A DNA stretch of 64,000 nt from Escherichia coli (GCF_051903065.1 NZ_CP178438.1); one strand, 5' to 3'. Positions 8,272 through 52,072 are shown, counted from the first letter of the stretch. Numbers and translations: made by a program. Notes: a model not told the origin generated them from the letters alone.

Positions 8272-8560
8272 AACTACCTCGTGTCAGGGGATCCATTTTC
8301 AGCCTTGGCACAAGGGAAGAGCGGAAGACGGGTGGGCGCAGAGCGATACTTCGCTACTATTTTCACCCAGAAGTGCTCCACCACTTGCGAAACGCCCGAC
8401 TGCGAACGCTTCTGGTGACAACCCAGGGGATTCAGCCCCTGTAGCCGATGATGAACGTGGCCAGCCGTTCAATCACCTCGGCGATGCACCCCCTCAGGTG
8501 TTATCACAGGACTGGCTCCTCCAACACCGTTACTTGGGCAACGCGCCTCTTCTGGCCTGC
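8272..8560 (-). promoter_or_regulatory. lysC leader containing lysine riboswitch (LYS element)
   Basis: About 290 nt GC-rich untranslated leader directly upstream of the lysC start; matches the known position of the lysine riboswitch; boundaries approximate. Confidence 0.65.
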
Positions 8561-10445: not shown

Positions 10446-10570
<125 letters not shown>

Positions 10571-10615
10571 TCGTATTCGGCAATTAATGCATAGCACGAT
10601 TAATTAAATAACCTT

Positions 10616-10650
10616 AAAAACAATGCCGACTATAAGTCGGCATTGTTTTA
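10616..10650 (+). terminator. Rho-independent terminator downstream of pgi
   Basis: Hairpin caatgccgac...gtcggcattg followed by TTTTA. Confidence 0.6.
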
Positions 10651-10957
10651 TCAGATAAATCTCCTTGTCTGTGATTTAACGGAAATCATACCGTGAGGTT
10701 AATCCTAAAATAGATTTTTAATCGTGATTTATTTCGGAAAATACTCAGATTAATTACTTTTGCTTTTATTTTAACACTATGATTTTTAATGTTATTTATA
10801 TATAAGTTGTAGCTTATATTTGATATTCATTCCAATTATCCTAAAACCCCATCTCTAATTCCCCGCGCCGTAATTCGCATGCTTTAGTTGTGTATACTCG
10901 ATCCCGCCCGAAATGTTTTTGGGTAAATCTCCATTCATTCAATGAAGGGAAATTGTT

Positions 10958-20139: not shown

Positions 20140-20280
20140 CATTCCAGGACGGATAAGGCTTTCACGCCTTATCCGACAACAACTGCCTGATGCGACGCTG
20201 ACGCGTCTTATCAGACCTACATACGTTTCGGTTTTGTAGGCCGGACAAGGCGTTCACGCCGCATCCGGCATTTCACAGCA
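20140..20280. repeat. REP/BIME repeats in malE-malF intergenic region
   Basis: ggataaggc...gccttatccg and gccggacaaggcgttcacgccgcatccggca palindromic units. Confidence 0.7.
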
Positions 20281-24369: not shown

Positions 24370-24500
<131 letters not shown>

Positions 24501-37689: not shown

Positions 37690-38105
37690 CGGATTATCAG
37701 CCATACAGGAAAGGAACTGTGCTTGCCCCAACTGGGCCATGCAATCATCTTCATGTGATTTGTAATGATCCTGTTTATTACCCCGTTAACGATTGTTATT
37801 GTGTTTTAGTTGTTAATATTTCTAGTATCAAGGATGGTGTCCCCCACGATCCGTCTTGCGTCTTGAATTCTGGTGATCATCGCTTTATCAAGCATCCAAG
37901 TTATGTTGTTTACGCTGAAGCTATAATTTGGCGAGTGGATAACATGGTTAGAAAGCAGCGATCGGGTGAGATTTCTGTTCATGATGATATGCCAGAAGCT
38001 ACATTCAATAGAATTCTGGACGGTTTTGATATCTCTGATGAAGTTACGCCAAAGAACCTTAAATTTAAAAATAAATATTGCGTATCATCTATTGATGATG
38101 AGTAA
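37686..38105 (+). CDS. Hypothetical 139-aa protein translationally coupled to the Panacea-like gene (candidate toxin/effector)
   Basis: ATGA start/stop overlap at 37686-37689; no family recognised; Cys/His cluster CNHLHVICND...DCYC. Confidence 0.5.
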   Translation: MTDYQPYRKGTVLAPTGPCNHLHVICNDPVYYPVNDCYCVLVVNISSIKDGVPHDPSCVLNSGDHRFIKHPSYVVYAEAIIWRVDNMVRKQRSGEISVHDDMPEATFNRILDGFDISDEVTPKNLKFKNKYCVSSIDDE

Positions 38106-43036: not shown

Positions 43037-43729
43037 TTAATTGTGTCGCTTAAGGGTTTGTGACTGACTGATTAAGACCTTTCCAAAGACCATAAACCGG
43101 TGTTCGTTTTCGCTGGTAATTCCCCATTCGCGGTAAATCTGATTATCAGAAATTACCAGCAGTTTATCAGGTATCATTTGCAGTCGTTTGACGTAAATTT
43201 TATCATCAAAACCAAATACATATATACCATCCCCATCAAACTGATTGATACTGATATCAACGAAGATGAGATCTCCTGGCTCAATGGTTGGACACATACT
43301 GTCCCCACGAACGTTGATAACTTTAATGTGATTTGCTGGTCGTCCACCAAACATCGATACAGCATTATCAGTTCTGTATTCAATGGCATGAATCACATCA
43401 ATGACATCACCGCCCTGGATAAGGCCATTTCCCGCACTGGCACTGACATCCAGCATTTCAATACGGAATACATCCTTCACCTGCGCAACATCCTCACTAA
43501 TACTGTTTTTACATACAGTATTACTTTTGAGGTCTGAGGTAAAGAGATCAGCAATATCAACACCTAAGCTCCTGGCAATATTACTCAGGGCTTGTTCAGT
43601 GAATTGTTTCTGCTTACCTGTTTCGAGGCGCGAGATATTCGCCGCATCCACTCCTATTGCTTCAGCGAGATCGGCGATTTTCATGTTCTTCGCCTGGCGA
43701 AGTTGTCTGACTCGATTTCCTATGTTCAT
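43037..43729 (-). CDS. CI-like phage repressor (HTH-XRE plus S24 peptidase domain)
   Basis: 230-aa ORF MNIGNRVRQLRQAKNMKIADLAEAIGVDAANISRLETGK...; C-terminal RGDSMCPTI and KRL (Ser/Lys dyad). Confidence 0.85.
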   Translation of the reverse strand: MNIGNRVRQLRQAKNMKIADLAEAIGVDAANISRLETGKQKQFTEQALSNIARSLGVDIADLFTSDLKSNTVCKNSISEDVAQVKDVFRIEMLDVSASAGNGLIQGGDVIDVIHAIEYRTDNAVSMFGGRPANHIKVINVRGDSMCPTIEPGDLIFVDISINQFDGDGIYVFGFDDKIYVKRLQMIPDKLLVISDNQIYREWGITSENEHRFMVFGKVLISQSQTLKRHN

Positions 43730-43826
43730 GCGTTTATTACATTTCTTTATTGCGCGTTAAGCAAATCAACTTGCGCAAAATATTTGCGTGAAATAATATG
43801 CTCATCACGCAATATGTGGAGGTTAT
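43730..43826. promoter_or_regulatory. Repressor/Cro divergent promoter-operator region
   Basis: ttgcgcgttaagcaa (43750-43764), palindrome TTGCGCAA (43771-43778), and TTGCGTGA-N13-TCACGCAA (43785-43813). Confidence 0.6.
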
Positions 43827-44087
43827 ATGCAATCACCATTACGGAATGTGCGTAAGGCGCACGGATTTACTTTGCAGCATGTTGCTGCGGGCGTTCAGGT
43901 CAATCCAGCGACGCTGAGTCGTATTGAAAGACTGGAACAAATTCCATCTATCGATCTTGCAGAACGTCTGGCCAATTTTTTTAAGGGTGAAATCAGCGAA
44001 ATGCAGATTCTTTATCCGGCACGTTTTCAATCTAGCCAAAACCAGAATGGGTTTAAACCACAGGAACAGGAGGTAAGCCGTGGGTAA
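43827..44087 (+). CDS. Cro-like HTH regulator
   Basis: 86-aa ORF with GGAGG RBS; HTH FTLQHVAAGVQVNPATLSRIERLEQIPSIDLAERLANFF. Confidence 0.75.
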   Translation: MQSPLRNVRKAHGFTLQHVAAGVQVNPATLSRIERLEQIPSIDLAERLANFFKGEISEMQILYPARFQSSQNQNGFKPQEQEVSRG

Positions 44088-44631
44088 GCATCATTGGAAA
44101 GTGGAAAAACAACCTGAGTGGTACGTGAAAGCTGTCAGAAAAACTATCGCGGCATTGCCAGGGGGTTACGCTGAAGCTGCTGACTGGCTGGATGTAACAG
44201 AGAACGCTTTATTCAACCGCCTTCGTGCAGATGGCGATCAGATTTTCCCGTTGGGATGGGCAATGGTTTTACAGCGTGCTGCTGGCAATCACCACATTGC
44301 GGATGCTGTCGCACAGTCTGCTGGTGGGGTGTTTGTATCACTTCCTGAAATTGAGGAAGTAGAGAACGCCGATATCAACCAGCGCCTGCTGGAGGTCATT
44401 GAACAGATCGGCAGTTATTCCAGACAGATTCGTTCAGCAATTGAAGACGGGGTGGTGGAACCACACGAGCAGGCAGCAATTAACGACGAGCTGTACATGT
44501 CAATTTCGAAGCTGCAGGAGCATGCAGCACTGGTCTACAAAATCTTTTGCGCTCCAGAAAAGAGTGACGCCCGCGAGTGTGCAGCTCCGGGCGCCGTGGC
44601 GTTTTGTGTCTGTGGAGAAACTAACGCATGA
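44080..44631 (+). CDS. CII-position regulatory protein (possibly YdaT-like)
   Basis: 183-aa ORF, GTG start with AGGAGG RBS, overlapping cro stop; family uncertain. Confidence 0.4.
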
Positions 44632-44966
44632 ACAGTTTAACAACACACTACCGTCGCTCGCAACTGATTGCGCTTCCTGTACCGGGTGGAAAAGCGAAGG
44701 TGGAGTATTGCTATGCAGTGAATGTACCAGGTGACAGGGAAATTGTAACCCACAGCTTTGCAGAGTGGGCTGTGGGTGATTTCAACCGGCAGAAGGAGAC
44801 AGTCCTTTGCGACAAGTTAACCGCTGGTTCAAAGATCACTACGGAGTGCCCGTCAGAGTCATTCGTTGGGAGCCGGAAACACAACGGGTTATCTACCTCC
44901 GTGAAGGCTATGAACATGAATGCTTCAGTCCGCTCGAACAGTTTCGTCGTAAATTCAGGGAAATAG
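44628..44966 (+). CDS. Hypothetical protein (112 aa), overlapped by an alternative-frame small ORF
   Basis: ORF from track; ATGA coupling to preceding gene; no family recognised. Confidence 0.3.
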
Positions 44967-45019
44967 AGGTCGGTCATGAGCCTGTTAATGACATCCCAGC
45001 CCATTGTGATAAATCGTGA
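44807..45019 (+). CDS. Hypothetical small protein (70 aa), TTG start
   Basis: TTG at 44807 preceded by GAAGGAG; overlaps the previous ORF in another frame. Confidence 0.3.
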
Positions 45020-45968
45020 TCTTGCATGCCGTATTGGTCTGAATGAGGCAATTGTGTTGCAGCAGCTTCATTACTGGCTGAATGAAACGAATTCAGGCAC
45101 TGAGCATGGCGGAATTCGCTGGGTTTATAACACGACAGAACAGTGGCTGGAGCAGTTTCCGTTCTGGTCAGAGTCCACTCTGAAACGCACATTTGCAAGC
45201 CTGAAATCACTTGGGGTTTTGCGTCGCGAGCAACTCAATAAATCGAAGCGTGACATGACCAACTTCTACACGATCAACTATGAAAGTGAGCTTTTAGAAG
45301 AGGTCAAAGTGAACGAATCGATCAGGTCAAAATGCACTTCTCCATCGGGTCAAAGTGACCTGATGGATGGGCGCAAAATGACACGATCCATTGGTTCAAA
45401 ACGACACGCTGTCATCGGGTCAAAATGGCCCAATGATCTTACAGAGAATACAACAGAGATTACTACAGAGAATAAAACCTCTTCTCGTCCGGACGCTTCG
45501 CAACCGGACACGCAAACGGCTGAACAGGAGTTTTTAACTCGCCATCCTGATGCGGTTGTATTCAGCCCTAAAAAGCGCCAGTGGGGAACGCAGGATGATT
45601 TGACCTGCGCACAGTGGCTCTGGAAAAAAATCATCGCCCTGTACGAGCAGGCCGCCGAATGTGACGGCGAGGTGGTTCGTCCCAAAGAACCGAACTGGAC
45701 AGCCTGGGCAAACGAAATTCGCCTGATGTGTGTGCAGGATGGTCGTACTCACAAACAAATCTGCGAGATGTACAGCCGCGTCAGCCGCGATCCGTTCTGG
45801 TGCCGTAACGTGCTCAGCCCGTCGAAGTTGCGGGAAAAATGGGATGAGCTTTCCCTGCGCTTATCGCCGTCCGTCAGCACGCACACAGAAAAACGTGAAG
45901 ACCCGTACTTCAAAGCCAGTTACGACAACGTGGACTACAGCCAGATCCCGGCAGGATTCAGGGGGTGA
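44976..45968 (+). CDS. Phage replication initiation protein (O-like N-terminus)
   Basis: 330-aa ORF in the replication position after cro/cII; assignment by position and composition. Confidence 0.5.
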   Translation: MSLLMTSQPIVINRDLACRIGLNEAIVLQQLHYWLNETNSGTEHGGIRWVYNTTEQWLEQFPFWSESTLKRTFASLKSLGVLRREQLNKSKRDMTNFYTINYESELLEEVKVNESIRSKCTSPSGQSDLMDGRKMTRSIGSKRHAVIGSKWPNDLTENTTEITTENKTSSRPDASQPDTQTAEQEFLTRHPDAVVFSPKKRQWGTQDDLTCAQWLWKKIIALYEQAAECDGEVVRPKEPNWTAWANEIRLMCVQDGRTHKQICEMYSRVSRDPFWCRNVLSPSKLREKWDELSLRLSPSVSTHTEKREDPYFKASYDNVDYSQIPAGFRG

Positions 45969-46459
45969 TCATGAGTCTTTTGAATGAAGTTCAGAAATTC
46001 ATTGAAGCCCATCCGGGGTGTACTTCCGGAGACATTGCGGATGCTTTTGCAGGTTACTCACGGCAGCGCGTTCTGCAGTCAGCAAGCAAGTTACGTCAGA
46101 GTGGGCGTGTGGCTCACCGTTGTGAAGGAGATACACGCAGACATTTCCCACGCCTGACTGAGAGAGCGCAGGAGCCGGAACCACAACCAGTTCGTGAAAC
46201 CAGACCTGTGCGCAATTTCTATGTCGGCACTAACGATCCCCGGGTGATTTTGTGCCTGACCCGCCAGGCGGAAGAACTGGAGTCCAGGGGCCTATACCGT
46301 CGTGCTGCAACGGTGTGGATGGCGGCATTCCGTGAAAGCCACTCCCAGCCAGAACGAAACAATTTTCTGGTGCGTCGTGAGCAGTGTTTACGGAAAAGCA
46401 GCAAGCGCGCTGTATCGGGTGATGAGTGGTATCTGTCAGGGAATTACGTGGGGGCTTAA
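45965..46459 (+). CDS. PerC-like transcriptional activator homolog
   Basis: 164-aa ORF; segment LESRGLYRRAATVWMAAF resembles the PerC/Pch core from memory. Confidence 0.35.
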   Translation: MIMSLLNEVQKFIEAHPGCTSGDIADAFAGYSRQRVLQSASKLRQSGRVAHRCEGDTRRHFPRLTERAQEPEPQPVRETRPVRNFYVGTNDPRVILCLTRQAEELESRGLYRRAATVWMAAFRESHSQPERNNFLVRREQCLRKSSKRAVSGDEWYLSGNYVGA

Positions 46460-47112
46460 TGAGTAATAAATATTGCCAGGAGCTGGTGGAACTGCGGAAC
46501 AAACCAGCCCATGAACTGAAGGAAGTGGGTGATCAGTGGCGCACGCCGGACAACATTTTCTGGGGAATTAACACCCTGTTTGGCCCGTTTGTTCTGGATC
46601 TGTTCACTGACGGTGATAACGCCAAATGTGCCGCGTATTACACGGCGGAAGACAACGCGCTGGCGCATGACTGGTCAGAACGCCTTGCGGAGCTTAAAGG
46701 TGCTGCCTTTGGTAATCCTCCATACAGCCGCGCCAGTCAGCATGAGGGGCAATACATCACCGGCATGCGTTACATCATGAAACATGCCAGTGCCATGCGT
46801 GATAAGGGCGGGCGCTATGTTTTCCTGATCAAAGCTGCCACCAGCGAAGTGTGGTGGCCGGAAGATGCAGATCATATTGCTTTTATTCGCGGGCGTATTG
46901 GTTTTGAACTGCCTGTCTGGTTTATCCCGAAAGACGAGAAGCAGGTACCGACAGGAGCTTTTTTCGCTGGTGCTATTGCTGTTTTTGACAAGACCTGGAA
47001 GGGACCGGCAATCAGCTACATCGGGCGCGATGAACTTGAGGCATGTGGTGAGGCGTTTCTGGCGCAGGTTCGCCAGCAGGCGGAAAAACTGGTCAGGGAG
47101 ATGGCGGCATGA
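46459..47112 (+). CDS. Phage DNA N6-adenine methyltransferase (Dam-like)
   Basis: ORF 46426..47112; start at MSNKYCQ (GGGGG RBS); catalytic NPPY motif (FGNPPYSRA). Confidence 0.7.
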   Translation: MSNKYCQELVELRNKPAHELKEVGDQWRTPDNIFWGINTLFGPFVLDLFTDGDNAKCAAYYTAEDNALAHDWSERLAELKGAAFGNPPYSRASQHEGQYITGMRYIMKHASAMRDKGGRYVFLIKAATSEVWWPEDADHIAFIRGRIGFELPVWFIPKDEKQVPTGAFFAGAIAVFDKTWKGPAISYIGRDELEACGEAFLAQVRQQAEKLVREMAA

Positions 47113-47435
47113 CGACATTAACTCAATGCCAGCAGCAGGTGCTGGATATGCTGATTTCTTATCAGAAAGAGCGTGGCTTTCCGCCAACCAATCAGGAGGT
47201 GGCAACCATGCTGGGATACCGTTCAGTGAATGCAGCGGTGGAGCATCTTCGCGCACTGGAGAAAAAAGGCGTCATCACGATAAAGCGTGGCGTGGCCCGG
47301 GGGATAACGCTTCATACCGCGGTGAAGGACGACGACAGCGAGGCGGTCGGGATTATCCGCGCACTGCTTGCCGGTGAGGAAAACGCAAGGCTGCGTGCAA
47401 CCCACTGGTTACATGAGAGGGACCTGAAAGTATGA
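47109..47435 (+). CDS. LexA N-terminal DNA-binding-domain paralog (no S24 peptidase domain)
   Basis: 108-aa ORF MTTLTQCQQQVLDMLISYQKERGFPPTNQEVATMLGYRSVNAAVEHLRALEKKGVITIKRGVARGITL aligns by eye with host LexA residues 1-70 in this window. Confidence 0.7.
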   Translation: MTTLTQCQQQVLDMLISYQKERGFPPTNQEVATMLGYRSVNAAVEHLRALEKKGVITIKRGVARGITLHTAVKDDDSEAVGIIRALLAGEENARLRATHWLHERDLKV

Positions 47436-47821
47436 AGCTGATCCTGCCTTTTCCGCCCAGCGTGAACACGTACTGGCGACACCCCAACAAAGGGGCATTT
47501 TCTGGTAAGAGCCTGATAAGCGCGGCGGGGCGAAAATTTCAGAGCGCGGCGTGCGCAGCAATAGTTGAGCAGTTACGTCGTCTGCCAAAACCAACGTCGG
47601 CACCTGCTTCAGTGGAGATCGTGTTGTTTCCTCCGGATAACCGGATCCGCGATCTGGACAACTATAACAAGGCGCTGTTTGACGCCCTGACCCACGCGGG
47701 TGTGTGGGAAGACGACAGACAGGTGAAAAGAATGCTGGTGGAGTGGGGACCGGTTATCCCGGAAGGGAAGGTCGAGATCACTATCAGTAAGTACGAGAAA
47801 ACGGCGGGTGCAGCCGCCTGA
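47432..47821 (+). CDS. rusA: Holliday-junction resolvase RusA
   Basis: 129-aa ORF MKLILPFPPSVNTYWRH... with D-x-D-N-Y catalytic segment (RDLDNYNKALFDAL). Confidence 0.85.
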   Translation: MKLILPFPPSVNTYWRHPNKGAFSGKSLISAAGRKFQSAACAAIVEQLRRLPKPTSAPASVEIVLFPPDNRIRDLDNYNKALFDALTHAGVWEDDRQVKRMLVEWGPVIPEGKVEITISKYEKTAGAAA

Positions 47822-47840
47822 GCAAAAGGAGAAACGAAGT

Positions 47841-48650
47841 ATGAATAATCTGATGGTCATTGATGGTATTGAAGTTCGTCGTGATGCTTATGGGCGTTAC
47901 AGCCTGAACGATCTGCATCGCGCAGCAGTAGCATCTGGTGCAAATGCCAGAACCAAGGAGCCGGGAAAGTTTCTTTCCAGCCAACAAACTGTTGAGCTTG
48001 TTCATGAATTGACCAACACCCAGAATTTGGGTGTTGACCCGGTGAGTGTGATTCATGGGGGAAATGAAAGGGGAACGTATGTCTGCAAGGAACTGGTGTA
48101 TGCCTATGCAATGTGGATCAGCCCGTCATTCCATCTGAAGGTGATCCGTACTTTCGATATGGTAACCAGCGCACCGGAAAAATTATCCGGACAGGCTGCT
48201 GACAAGATGCAGGCTGGCGTGATCCTGCTGGACTTTATGCGCCGGGAGTTAAACCTGTCTAACTCTTCAGTGCTTGGTGCCTGTCAGAAACTCCAGGAGG
48301 CTGTTGGCTTACCGAATCTGGCACCGCGCTATGCCATTGATGCTCCTGCTGACGCGCCTGATGGCTCAAGCCGCCCCACGCTATCATTGAGTGCACTGCT
48401 GAAGCAGTATGGTATCCGCCTGACAGCTAATCAGGCATATCACCAGATGGCGAAGCTGGGGATCGTTGAACAACGTGAACGATACAGCCGCACTGCGATT
48501 AACAACATCAAAAAATTCTGGTCGCTGACAGCGAAAGGCTGCATGTTCGGCAAGAACATCACCAGTCCCGCAAATCCGCGCGAGACGCAGCCGCATTTCT
48601 TCGAATCCCGATTCCCTGAGCTGTTAAAGCTGCTCGATACCGTTCATTGA
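47841..48650 (+). CDS. KilA-N domain protein (antirepressor-like)
   Basis: ORF 47808..48650; start at MNNLMVIDGIEV (AAGGAG RBS); KilA-N-like N-terminus. Confidence 0.55.
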   Translation: MNNLMVIDGIEVRRDAYGRYSLNDLHRAAVASGANARTKEPGKFLSSQQTVELVHELTNTQNLGVDPVSVIHGGNERGTYVCKELVYAYAMWISPSFHLKVIRTFDMVTSAPEKLSGQAADKMQAGVILLDFMRRELNLSNSSVLGACQKLQEAVGLPNLAPRYAIDAPADAPDGSSRPTLSLSALLKQYGIRLTANQAYHQMAKLGIVEQRERYSRTAINNIKKFWSLTAKGCMFGKNITSPANPRETQPHFFESRFPELLKLLDTVH

Positions 48651-48651
48651 G

Positions 48652-49647
48652 GTGACCGTGAGAGCACTACTGACTCCTGAAATTGCCCCGCGTATGGGGA
48701 TCGTATTGTTCAGGCCAGGTTCAGAGCTGATGCCCCTGTTTATGCAGGGGCGTGTCCTGTTGGAGCCTGAGCCGGAACGTTATTCATCTTTTGCCAGTGG
48801 TGCCGTTCCGGCGGTATCACAACCGCTGGCGGATGATCCTGCCGTTCGGGGCGTGTTCCGCAATGAGGCAGTGATCCGTCGTGCTGGTGGCGTGGAATGT
48901 CTTGAAAGCTGGTTACTTCGTGAAAAGGGCTGTCAGTGGCCTCATTCCGACTGGCACAGCGAGAACATGACCACAATGCGGCACGCGCCGGGCGCAATCC
49001 GTCTGTGCTGGCACTGCGATAACCAGCTGCGCGATCAGTTCACGGAACGGCTGGAATCAATGGCAACGGATAACTGTGCCCGCTGGGTATTGTCTGTTGT
49101 GCGTCGGGATCTCGGTTTTGATGATAGTCACGTTGTGACAATGCCGGAACTGTGCTGGTGGCTGGTTCGTAATGACCTGGCGGATGCCTTACCGGAAAGT
49201 GCAGCCCGTAAGGCACTGAGATTACCGAAGCCTGTTGTGCCGTCTGTCACCCGGGAAAGTGACCTTGTGCCTTCGGTTCCTGCCACCAGCATCATCCAGG
49301 ATAAGGCGAAAAAGGTGCTGGCGCTGAAAGTGGATCCGGAGTCGCCGGAGTCTTTTATGTTACGCCCAAAACGTCGCCGCTGGGTTAATGAAAAGTACAC
49401 GCGCTGGGTTAAGACACAGCCGTGTGCATGTTGTGGAAAGCCCGCTGATGATCCCCACCACCTGATAGGCCACGGTCAGGGGGGAATGGGTACAAAAGCG
49501 CATGACCTCTTTGTGTTGCCTTTGTGCAGAAAGCATCACGACGAGCTGCATGCGGATACCGTGGCATTTGAAGAGAAGTATGGCTCCCAGTTGGAGCTGA
49601 TATTTCGTTTTATCGATCGTGCGCTGGCAATAGGCGTACTGGCGTAA
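48652..49647 (+). CDS. DUF968-family phage protein
   Basis: 331-aa ORF with C-terminal CACCGKPADDPHHLIGHGQGGMGTKAHD...PLCRKHHDELH; start uncertain. Confidence 0.55.
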   Translation: MTVRALLTPEIAPRMGIVLFRPGSELMPLFMQGRVLLEPEPERYSSFASGAVPAVSQPLADDPAVRGVFRNEAVIRRAGGVECLESWLLREKGCQWPHSDWHSENMTTMRHAPGAIRLCWHCDNQLRDQFTERLESMATDNCARWVLSVVRRDLGFDDSHVVTMPELCWWLVRNDLADALPESAARKALRLPKPVVPSVTRESDLVPSVPATSIIQDKAKKVLALKVDPESPESFMLRPKRRRWVNEKYTRWVKTQPCACCGKPADDPHHLIGHGQGGMGTKAHDLFVLPLCRKHHDELHADTVAFEEKYGSQLELIFRFIDRALAIGVLA

Positions 49648-49660
49648 GTGGAGAACGAGC

Positions 49661-50413
49661 ATGAACCTTGAAGCCTTACCAAAATATTACTCCCCAAAAT
49701 CTCCCAAATTGAGCGATGAGGCACCGGCGACAGGCTCGAGTGGTTTAACGATTACGGATGTGATGGCTGCGCAGGGGATGGTGCAGTCGAAAGCACCGCT
49801 TGGGTTTGCCTTATTTCTGGCAAAAGTTGGTGTTCAGGATCCTCAGTTTGCGATTGAAGGTCTGCTCAATTACGCGATGGCACTGGATAACCCGACATTG
49901 AACAAATTGAGTGAAGAAACCCGGTTACAGATCATCCCTTACCTTGTGAATTTTGCCTTTGCTGATTATTCCAGGTCTGCTGCAAGTAAGGCTCGCTGTG
50001 AGCATTGTGCTGGTACTGGATTTCATAATGTATTGCGCGAAGTGGTGAAACACTCCAGAAGCGGGGAATCTGTTATCAAGGAAGAGTGGGTGAAGGAACT
50101 ATGTCAGCATTGTTATGGTAAGGGAGAGGTCAGCACAGCGTGTAGAGGGTGTAAGGGGAAAGGTATTGTACTGGATGAAAAAAGAACCCGGCTTCATGGT
50201 GCGCCTGTTTATAAGGTTTGTGGGCGTTGCAATGGAAACCGGTTTAGCCGTTTACCAACCACACTGGCGCGGCATCATGTCCAGAAGCTGGTACCGGATC
50301 TGACGGATTATCAGTGGTACAAAGGATATGCAGATGTCATTGATAAACTGGTTACAAAGTGCTGGCAGGAAGAAGCATATGCAGAGACACAATTGAGAAA
50401 AGTGACAAGATAA
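49661..50413 (+). CDS. Late-gene antiterminator Q-like protein
   Basis: 250-aa ORF with zinc-binding cysteine pairs (CEHCAGTG, CQHCYGKG, CRGCKGKG, CGRCNG); immediately upstream of candidate late promoter and terminator. Confidence 0.65.
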   Translation: MNLEALPKYYSPKSPKLSDEAPATGSSGLTITDVMAAQGMVQSKAPLGFALFLAKVGVQDPQFAIEGLLNYAMALDNPTLNKLSEETRLQIIPYLVNFAFADYSRSAASKARCEHCAGTGFHNVLREVVKHSRSGESVIKEEWVKELCQHCYGKGEVSTACRGCKGKGIVLDEKRTRLHGAPVYKVCGRCNGNRFSRLPTTLARHHVQKLVPDLTDYQWYKGYADVIDKLVTKCWQEEAYAETQLRKVTR

Positions 50414-50446
50414 ATGATTTTCGCCGAAGATGGCGACATGATGCTT

Positions 50447-50476
50447 GCATTTTTCAAAAAATATGGATAAGATTTT
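50447..50476 (+). promoter_or_regulatory. Candidate late promoter (PR'-like)
   Basis: TTGCAT, 17-bp spacer, TAAGAT. Confidence 0.45.
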
Positions 50477-50520
50477 CCCAACGATGGGCTTTGTATGTCT
50501 ACCGTTGATAAGATTTAAGA

Positions 50521-50550
50521 ACCCGCCACTGAGCGGGTTTTTTGTACCTG
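50521..50550 (+). terminator. Rho-independent terminator (tR'-like)
   Basis: aacccgccactgagcgggttttttg. Confidence 0.7.
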
Positions 50551-50665
50551 TAAACTTGGTGCAGTACAGTAAACACGCTGGTGGTCGTGAATACTGACTT
50601 TTTATCTTGCTGGATTTTTAGACAAGAGTTATTGGTATGTCATGTTAACCAGAAGGGAAAAAGAC

Positions 50666-50869
50666 ATGCTAAAACAGCAAGATATGACAGAAACCGCCGC
50701 CGCAGTCCTTCATTTCTTACCTGCTGACAAGTGGGTAACGCCACGCATGATGACGAGAACTACCGGAGTAAGCGAAGCCCGGTGCCAGTTAATACTGACT
50801 CAGTTAGTTCTGGCGGGTCTGGCGAAGGATAACGGCGGGTACGGGAATAAATTCAGACGCTGCCAGTAA
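50666..50869 (+). CDS. Small hypothetical protein, possible winged-helix
   Basis: ORF 50642..50869; likely start at second ATG (MLKQQDMTETAAAV...). Confidence 0.35.
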   Translation: MLKQQDMTETAAAVLHFLPADKWVTPRMMTRTTGVSEARCQLILTQLVLAGLAKDNGGYGNKFRRCQ

Positions 50870-51019: not shown

Positions 51020-52072
51020 ATGAAAAATACTGTAAAAATAAACAGTGTTGATTTAATCAACGCTGATTGCCTGCATTTTATTCAGTCCCTGCCTGATGAT
51101 TCCATTGACCTGATTGTTACCGATCCGCCTTACTTCAAGGTGAAACCTAACGGTTGGGACAATCAGTGGAAAGGGGACGAAGATTACCTTAAGTGGCTGG
51201 ACCACTGTCTGGCCCAGTTCTGGCGGGTGTTGAAACCTGCCGGAAGCCTTTACCTGTTCTGTGGGCATCGCCTGGCATCTGATATTGAGATCATGATGCG
51301 TGAACGTTTCAACGTGCTTAACCATATCATCTGGGCGAAGCCGTCCGGACGTTGGAATGGGTGTAATAAAGAAAGTCTGCGCGCATATTTTCCTGCCACA
51401 GAGCGCGTTCTGTTTGCTGAACATTACCAGGGGCCATATCGCGGCAAAAGTGACGGCTATGCGGCAAAAGAAAGGGAACTCAAACAGCACATAATGGCAC
51501 CGCTGATATCGTATTTCAGGGATGCTCGTGCCGAACTGGGTATAACGGCAAAACAAATTGCCGAAGCCACAGGTAAGAAAAATATGGTTTCCCACTGGTT
51601 TGGTGCCAGTCAGTGGCAGTTGCCGAATGAGGCTGACTATCGGAAGTTACAGGCACTGTTTTCCCGTATAGCGGCAGAGAAGTTTCAGGAACAACAACTG
51701 GAACAACCACACCACCAGCTGGTGGCATCTTATGATTCACTGAATCGCAAATATTCTGAATTGCTGGATGAGTTTAAATCTCTCCGGCGCTATTTCTCCG
51801 TATCAGTCTCCGTGCCTTATACCGATGTCTGGACGCATAAGCCCGTTCAGTTCTACCCGGGTAAACATCCGTGCGAGAAACCGACGGATATGCTCCGGCA
51901 AATAATCAATGCCAGTAGTCGACCTGGTGATCTGGTTGCTGATTTCTTTATGGGATCCGGTTCCACAATAAAAGCAGCAATGGCGCTGGGGCGTCGGGCG
52001 TTAGGTGTTGAACTTGAGTCAGAGCGGTTTAATCAGACGGTGAAAGAGGTAAGTGAACTGGTGGGGAAATAA
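51020..52072 (+). CDS. Orphan DNA methyltransferase (N6/N4 class, DPPY motif)
   Basis: 350-aa ORF with DPPYF catalytic motif and C-terminal SAM-binding segment FFMGSGSTI. Confidence 0.75.
   Translation: MKNTVKINSVDLINADCLHFIQSLPDDSIDLIVTDPPYFKVKPNGWDNQWKGDEDYLKWLDHCLAQFWRVLKPAGSLYLFCGHRLASDIEIMMRERFNVLNHIIWAKPSGRWNGCNKESLRAYFPATERVLFAEHYQGPYRGKSDGYAAKERELKQHIMAPLISYFRDARAELGITAKQIAEATGKKNMVSHWFGASQWQLPNEADYRKLQALFSRIAAEKFQEQQLEQPHHQLVASYDSLNRKYSELLDEFKSLRRYFSVSVSVPYTDVWTHKPVQFYPGKHPCEKPTDMLRQIINASSRPGDLVADFFMGSGSTIKAAMALGRRALGVELESERFNQTVKEVSELVGK

Follow-up and report, generated by a model that had tools for sequence, protein, structure and literature searches.

A gene of 164 codons lies between the replication initiator and the adenine methyltransferase of a lambdoid prophage in Escherichia coli, raising the question of what its product is and what it might do in the early program of the phage. 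We examined this gene in a stretch of 64,000 nucleotides of an E. coli chromosome (GCF_051903065.1, NZ_CP178438.1), called here the window, to which all coordinates refer. An earlier note, made from the sequence alone, had described an open reading frame (ORF) at 45965-46459 on the + strand, placed it in the replication/nin region and suggested, with low certainty, that its peptide LESRGLYRRAATVWMAAF resembles the core of PerC/Pch-type activators. The ORF exists as described, running from a GTG at 45965 to the TAA at 46457-46459, and the peptide is found at residues 105-122 (46277-46330).

The suggested PerC/Pch-like core is supported by Pfam, by direct comparison with PerC and by the conservation of its key residues. 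A search with the PerC family HMM, which had been proposed as a check, was positive and above the curated threshold: residues 100-153 (46262-46423) match Pfam PerC (PF06069) at E 7.1e-10 with 39.5 bits, the gathering score being 22.6, and all 34 diverse full-length relatives of the protein match the same profile. Direct BLASTP against PerC of EPEC E2348/69, the canonical perC reference being taken from EPEC pMAR2, aligns 56 amino acids at 32% identity (E 2e-7). In an alignment that includes the short relatives, the ORF has all the invariant columns that PerC, PchA and PchE share (A102, L105, G109, R113, A114, R138 and C141), together with the nearly invariant core residues E106, R112, A115, W118 and R131, and the core motif of the ORF reads A..LE.RGLYRRAATVW..AF.....ER.....RR..CL. 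The match to PF06069 covers profile positions 5-58 of 90 only, short of a full-length PerC. The resemblance to PerC/Pch claimed earlier consequently holds for the core and fails for the remainder of the protein, and PerC-family membership, as judged from these alignments, is secure for the core only.

Over its entire length, the protein belongs to a family that is already named. Residues 2-163 match PHROG 1324 ('transcriptional activator') end to end with an E-value of 1.2e-77. Megablast finds 100% identical DNA in four E. coli chromosomes (CT29, MB53, D53-1 and EC332), for which the RefSeq/PGAP name is "yfdN: PerC family transcriptional regulator", and matches to yfdN in 2667 of 5426 complete E. 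coli genomes, annotated as yfdN or PerC family transcriptional regulator. The counterparts in phages mEp460, SfV (orf40), SfIV and SfII and in Stx2c phages are 94-98% identical at the protein level, and Sb43 of Salmonella ST64B is 67% identical to the ORF. Database clusters at 96-100% identity, the large ones at 96-98%, are named PerC family or CPS-53 prophage protein, and the overwhelming majority of database homologues carry the PerC family name. On these matches, the ORF is a copy of yfdN, a long two-domain branch of the PerC family that has been called "the K12 unique PerC homologue" (PMC5931665). The PerC call is thus correct but ordinary, the gene being already annotated and already known, and our additions are modest: the two-domain architecture and the overlap between the PerC and ANR profiles. 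The word 'activator' attached to YfdN is an annotation by analogy. Our literature search found no experiment on YfdN itself, which is listed as uncharacterised in 2025 and whose sole phenotype comes from an overexpression screen.

A chance ORF at 45965-46459 is ruled out by the homology evidence, because of the Pfam PerC match, the full-length match to PHROG 1324 and the 100 homologous proteins recovered. The latter come from a search of representative proteins at E<=0.001 and include full-length relatives at 25-47% identity; a sequence search of the PDB with the ORF returned no relative of solved structure. The position of the start codon deserves comment. The true start of yfdN is probably the ATG at 45971-45973, giving a product of 162 aa, because a Shine-Dalgarno sequence, AGGGGG (45960-45965, + strand, by reading of the sequence), is located 5 nt upstream of it and because the distant homologues in the alignment all begin MS(L/I) at this position. 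Some database clusters of YfdN-type proteins have 162 aa. PGAP all the same annotates the coding sequence from the GTG at 45965 (45965-46459, + strand, 164 aa), and we keep this numbering throughout.

We then considered how the PerC-like core is embedded in the longer protein. An AlphaFold2 model built on 34 aligned full-length relatives, the most distant at 23% identity, has a mean pLDDT of 84.7 and displays two confident domains: a winged helix at the N-terminus and, beyond a linker, the PerC core of three helices. The first domain spans residues about 4-62 (45974-46150, + strand) at pLDDT >90, with predicted helices at 5-15, 21-27 and 33-46 followed by strands at 49-54 and 57-62, in the H1-H2-H3-wing topology of winged helices. 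Its Foldseek neighbours in the PDB are MarR, ArsR/SmtB, BlaI/MecI, F-93 and AspA, superposing with an rmsd of 1.5-3 Å over about 60 residues; the TM-scores (target) reach 0.8, with E-values of just 0.02-0.08, which is weak. Some relatives of YfdN match Penicillinase_R, MarR_2, HTH_24 or PaaX directly by sequence. Both domains of YfdN are basic (pI 9.8 for the winged helix and 10.6 for the PerC core), and the residues of the recognition helix are poorly conserved across the family alignment. DNA binding by the winged helix is a prediction from the fold of the model, together with the basic charge of the domain (pI 9.8).

The remainder of the protein consists of the linker, the core and a short tail. 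The linker, rich in Pro and Glu (residues 63-91; 46151-46237, + strand), is modelled at pLDDT 50-70, falls in gapped and unconserved alignment columns and varies in length among relatives. The PerC/ANR-like core (residues 92-145; 46238-46399, + strand), delimited by Pfam, AlphaFold2, BLASTP and the alignment, is predicted to form three helices at 92-107, 111-124 and 128-145. Foldseek with the core modelled alone gave no significant match (best E 0.37), the nearest folds being TPR-like and MIT helical bundles. The C-terminal tail (residues 146-164; 46400-46456, + strand), delimited by the alignment and modelled at low pLDDT, ends in the family-specific WYLSGNYVGA (consensus LAGxYxG), which takes the place of the C-terminal third of PerC/Pch. 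A variation on this architecture is seen in a relative of 214 aa (P0188, L012:5001-5645), in which two tandem winged helices precede the PerC core and whose gene sits after the DnaB-type helicase of an O + DnaB module.

The genomic setting bears on when such a protein would be made. The window is a segment of the E. coli chromosome running into a lambdoid, SfV/mEp460-like prophage next to a 5' fragment of dusA, and the prophage carrying yfdN is inserted at dusA. The host side of the window is the same dinF-zur side as in strain CT29 and contains RNA elements that are ordinary E. coli features: a lysine riboswitch (8363-8559, - strand, 99.5 bits), three naRNA4/REP-type elements (10475-10546, 20147-20217 and 24376-24446) and STnc430 (10612-10761). 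The early rightward operon reads Cro-like HTH, YmfL/CII-like, DUF4222, O-like initiator, yfdN, Dam, a protein with a LexA DNA-binding domain, RusA, KilA-N, DUF968 and Q antiterminator, so that the placement in the replication/nin region proves right. Immediately upstream of yfdN is an O-like/DnaD-like replication initiator of 330 aa (44976-45968, + strand; C-terminal tail ..IPAGFRG) whose TGA stop at 45966-45968 abuts the yfdN start; immediately downstream, the ATG of a phage N6-adenine methyltransferase (Dam; 46459-47112, + strand) overlaps the yfdN stop in the sequence TAATG. A scan for a sigma-70-like consensus detected no promoter-like site on the + strand from 43206 to 50724, and so none belonging to yfdN itself. 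From this arrangement we infer delayed-early expression of yfdN, along with its replication and nin-type neighbours.

Several neighbours in the window merit separate mention. The DUF4222 ORF (44807-45019) shares 44 nt with the start of the initiator gene, and this pairing recurs at distant loci (L007, L010, L096 and L099). The 108-aa protein encoded at 47109-47435 (+ strand) is a bare LexA DNA-binding domain (PF01726, E 3e-19) that lacks the S24 self-cleavage domain. In distant relatives the module retains it as well, and it could mimic LexA at SOS boxes while resisting cleavage. The window contains three perfect CTGT-N8-ACAG SOS-box-like sites where 0.67 are expected; 3 of 100 shuffles reach three sites. 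The first (32121-32136) is found 30 nt before the ATG at 32166 of a 202-aa ORF that is lexA by gene order, the second (43503-43518) within the cI-like repressor gene and the third (51030-51045) at the start of a second methyltransferase gene (51020-52072). At the prophage edge, beside the dusA 5' fragment (at about 36760-36864), a protein with a SocA/Panacea antitoxin domain (37117-37689, + strand; PF13274, E 2e-19) is overlapped at its gene end by a 139-aa ORF without family match (37686-38105, + strand), and the two may form a toxin-antitoxin pair. PADLOC returned no meaningful defence-system match.

To what extent is the position of yfdN a property of this prophage or of the family? The order initiator, YfdN-like gene, methyltransferase, LexA-like gene and RusA recurs in relatives of 25-40% identity, and most of the initiators at those distant loci carry Phg_2220_C. 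In eight of ten independent contexts (the window, L007/8, L009, L010, L093-95, L096/97, L098 and L099), the YfdN-like gene comes directly after the replication initiator, with stop and start codons abutting or overlapping. The two exceptions are the relative with the double winged helix, which follows a complete O + DnaB module (L012), and a weak relative that follows RecT (L011). A sample of close copies was provided by 80 IMG/VR loci with 97-99% identical yfdN, the greater diversity coming from single look-ups. Among these 80 loci the initiator is a mosaic of at least four N-terminal types and two middle-domain types, and yfdN stays attached.

At all 80 loci with near-identical yfdN, the initiator has the same C-terminal tail of 24 aa. 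In the window, this tail corresponds to the last 24 codons of the initiator gene (45897-45968), ending ..DYSQIPAGFRG, with the general form [IL]PxGFR[GSQ]. It is seen in the window and in L007, L009, L010, L093-L098 and L100-L102, and distant initiators end in ..IPEGFRG, ..IPAGFRG or ..AGFRS. The tail looks like a short docking motif. The slot on the other side of the YfdN-like gene is occupied by three unrelated families of DNA adenine methyltransferases, Dam (PF05869), MT-A70 (PF05063) and D12 (PF02086), in the window, L006, L007, L096 and L099. Dam is absent from 19 of the 80 close loci, where yfdN abuts the LexA-like gene. As read from these gene orders, the methyltransferase slot is a case of non-orthologous replacement at a fixed position. 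A functional tie between YfdN and Dam was also considered and rejected, on account of both the loci without Dam and the unrelated methyltransferases of the relatives.

Taken together, we give a probability of roughly 0.6 to the reading that YfdN is an early-expressed transcription modulator in which the winged helix targets DNA and the PerC/ANR-like core makes protein contacts. Its synthesis would await infection or induction and coincide with that of the replication and nin-type proteins. The winged helix would supply DNA targeting, and the core would contact either another copy of itself or nucleoid-associated or other regulators, in a manner resembling the contacts with which Pch lifts silencing by H-NS and with which ANR proteins engage H-NS and AraC-type regulators. 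On DNA, Pch is located within regions bound by H-NS, and its activation is confined to places silenced by H-NS, StpA and Hha (PMC4764244). The same study describes the Pch mechanism as unsolved and reports that PchA did not co-precipitate H-NS, which counts against the proposed mechanism (PMC4764244). So does the lack, in YfdN, of the last third of PerC/Pch. Members of the PerC family differ in what they do: PchD/E hardly affect the LEE, PchE is a repressor of curli, and LEE1 is repressed by a PICI PerC-like protein whose similarity to ANR was noted by the authors as well (Kirsch et al., PMC11773190). Because function varies in this way within the family, neither the sign nor the target of regulation can be transferred to YfdN. 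The LEE itself is an unlikely target, as roughly half of the complete E. coli genomes carry yfdN, K-12 among them.

The modulator reading has its most serious competitor in the ANR proteins, which act by binding AraC-type regulators and H-NS, Aar binding AggR and H-NS directly. YfdN might be an ANR-like anti-regulator that works by protein binding purely, sequestering or remodelling H-NS/StpA or an AraC-family protein, with the winged helix as a second interaction or dimerisation surface. The two profiles do overlap: 30 of 41 PerC-core sequences match the NCBIfam ANR model (NF033650, ANR_neg_reg) at E<=0.01, the best at 6e-12. In addition, the residues conserved in ANRs (A10, E14, A22, W26 and A29; PMC4983702) line up with A102, E106, A114, W118 and A121 of YfdN, so that the conserved ANR face is present. 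The folds nearest to the core, in a match that is not significant, are peptide- or protein-binding helical repeats, the PICI PerC-like protein with noted ANR similarity behaves as a repressor, and the poor conservation of the recognition helix would fit a winged helix that does not read DNA. The ORF itself, however, scores 22.6 bits (full protein) or 24.4 bits (core alone) against the ANR profile, with E-values of 2e-5 to 7e-5, below the NCBIfam cut-off of 32. Moreover, no AraC-family gene is found in the prophage region examined, unlike at typical ANR loci, both domains are strongly basic, the N-terminal fold is that of a classical DNA-binding winged helix, and Pch has been located on DNA by ChIP. 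We therefore regard a purely protein-binding YfdN as unlikely, if the best placed of the alternatives.

The near-constant position behind the initiator fits equally well a role linked to replication. According to this alternative, YfdN is primarily not a transcription factor and works instead alongside the DnaD/G38P-like initiator, perhaps as an adaptor that recruits the helicase, in the slot of lambda P, SPP1 G39P and DnaC-like loaders. Besides the eight of ten contexts, the retention of yfdN while the initiator type is swapped agrees with such a role, as do the DnaC-like loader found in the same slot in Klebsiella phage Kp4886-1 and Vibrio phage douglas 12A4 and the lack of a recognisable helicase loader elsewhere in this module by Pfam, PHROG and annotation. 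Yet Pfam, PHROG and NCBIfam reveal no similarity of YfdN to lambda P, DnaC, SPP1 G39P or other loader families, and the DnaC-like proteins of the slot are unrelated to it. In Citrobacter phage phiNP, the same initiator type is followed directly by the methyltransferase, and the initiator can therefore do without any gene in the slot. The two exceptional relatives, placed after a complete O + DnaB-helicase module and after RecT, likewise speak against such a role, and the characterized homologues of the core (PerC, Pch and ANR) are all gene regulators. A replication-accessory role is possible from gene position, and we consider it improbable.

The ..PxGFRG tail of the initiator is present with or without a YfdN-like gene next to it and hence is not a partner motif specific to YfdN. 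Binding of this tail by the TPR-like PerC core was considered and rejected after a control, the tail being found also in phiNP, Kp4886-1 and douglas 12A4; because it occurs without a YfdN-like neighbour, the tail belongs to the initiator family.

A further reading, as improbable in our estimate as the replication accessory, would make YfdN-type proteins early-phage adaptors rather than classical activators, the PerC/ANR-like, TPR-like core binding a host or phage protein (for instance the nucleoid proteins H-NS/StpA, or part of the replication machinery) and the winged helix tethering this partner to phage DNA. If true, it would link the chromatin of the replication origin and early operon to counter-silencing, and would explain both why yfdN travels with the initiator across mosaic phages and why lambda Ren, possibly a stand-alone winged helix, occupies the same slot. 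Weakest of all is the reading of YfdN as a LEE/virulence activator equivalent to PerC/PchABC that switches on ler in an attaching-effacing host: it can point to the common PerC core and to the deletion of yfdN from K-12 as a possible confounder before the ler-lacZ assays of Uhlich et al., but is highly improbable given that the 2667 genomes with yfdN include K-12 and avian or commensal strains mostly devoid of LEE, that YfdN is without the C-terminal third of PerC/Pch, that yfdN is embedded in a lytic early operon while pchA stands alone on the opposite strand beside lysis genes, and that LEE1 activation is lacking even in the short homologues PchD/E and in PICI PerC-like proteins.

The finding matters little as such, the gene being annotated likewise in thousands of genomes. 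Its value lies mainly in an earlier call that has been confirmed and at the same time bounded: only a core of 55 residues is PerC-like, and transfer of the label 'LEE activator' is therefore not justified. YfdN is among the commonest uncharacterised prophage genes of E. coli. The combination of a winged helix with a PerC/ANR core, the presumed co-expression with replication genes and the overlap of the PerC and ANR profiles offer a basis for mechanistic work on PerC-family domains.

The preferred reading, a transcription modulator of the early operon, can finally be set against known systems, beginning with the most remote. Lambda Ren (96 aa), the first gene after P, occupies the same genomic slot as yfdN and, unlike YfdN, has no PerC core. 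An hhalign comparison of Ren (L103:1681-1968) with the N-terminal domain of YfdN (45971-46130) is collinear from the first residue of Ren with an E-value of 0.0016 at a probability of 16% only (phrog_142, E 0.007), and BLASTP of Ren against this domain has no match. That Ren is a stand-alone version of the YfdN winged helix is thus weakly hinted at, and we take it as a lead rather than as a finding. ANR proteins such as Aar (NF033650) share with the core of YfdN a three-helix build and the same conserved face, with its A, E, A, W, A spacing. In contrast to YfdN, with its 164 aa and extra domain, ANRs are about 60-70 aa long, stand alone and accompany AraC-family (AraC/XylS) genes.

PchE (Sakai Sp7, 90 aa) and PICI PerC-like proteins (e.g. 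EcCIMP1_025) have the same core as YfdN and are likewise encoded just downstream of replication genes of mobile elements (primase/SSB), demonstrating that members of the family need not be LEE activators. They are short and lack the winged helix, and their control of curli and flagella or repression of LEE1 is not transferable to YfdN. PerC (EPEC pEAF plasmid, 89 aa) and PchA/B/C (EHEC prophages, 104 aa) share with YfdN a homologous core some 55 residues long, in which the motif A..LE.KG(L/F)YRRAA..W......ER.....RR..C(L/I) is found, and a location on mobile elements of Enterobacteriaceae. The differences lie in architecture and setting: PerC and Pch have a single domain, extended at the C-terminus by a segment that YfdN lacks (profile positions 59-90), and no winged helix, whereas YfdN has the N-terminal winged helix, the linker and the WYLSGNYVG tail; and perC is part of the perABC operon and pchA stands alone, whereas yfdN lies inside an early operon. 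Activation of LEE1 is a demonstrated feature of PerC/PchABC. The closest counterparts are YfdN of E. coli K-12, from the CPS-53/KpLE1 prophage, and its phage orthologues, which are the same gene: they agree with the ORF in length, in their two-domain build and in lying between the replication gene and Dam, and they differ only in allelic variation and in the uncertainty of the start codon (GTG 45965 or ATG 45971).
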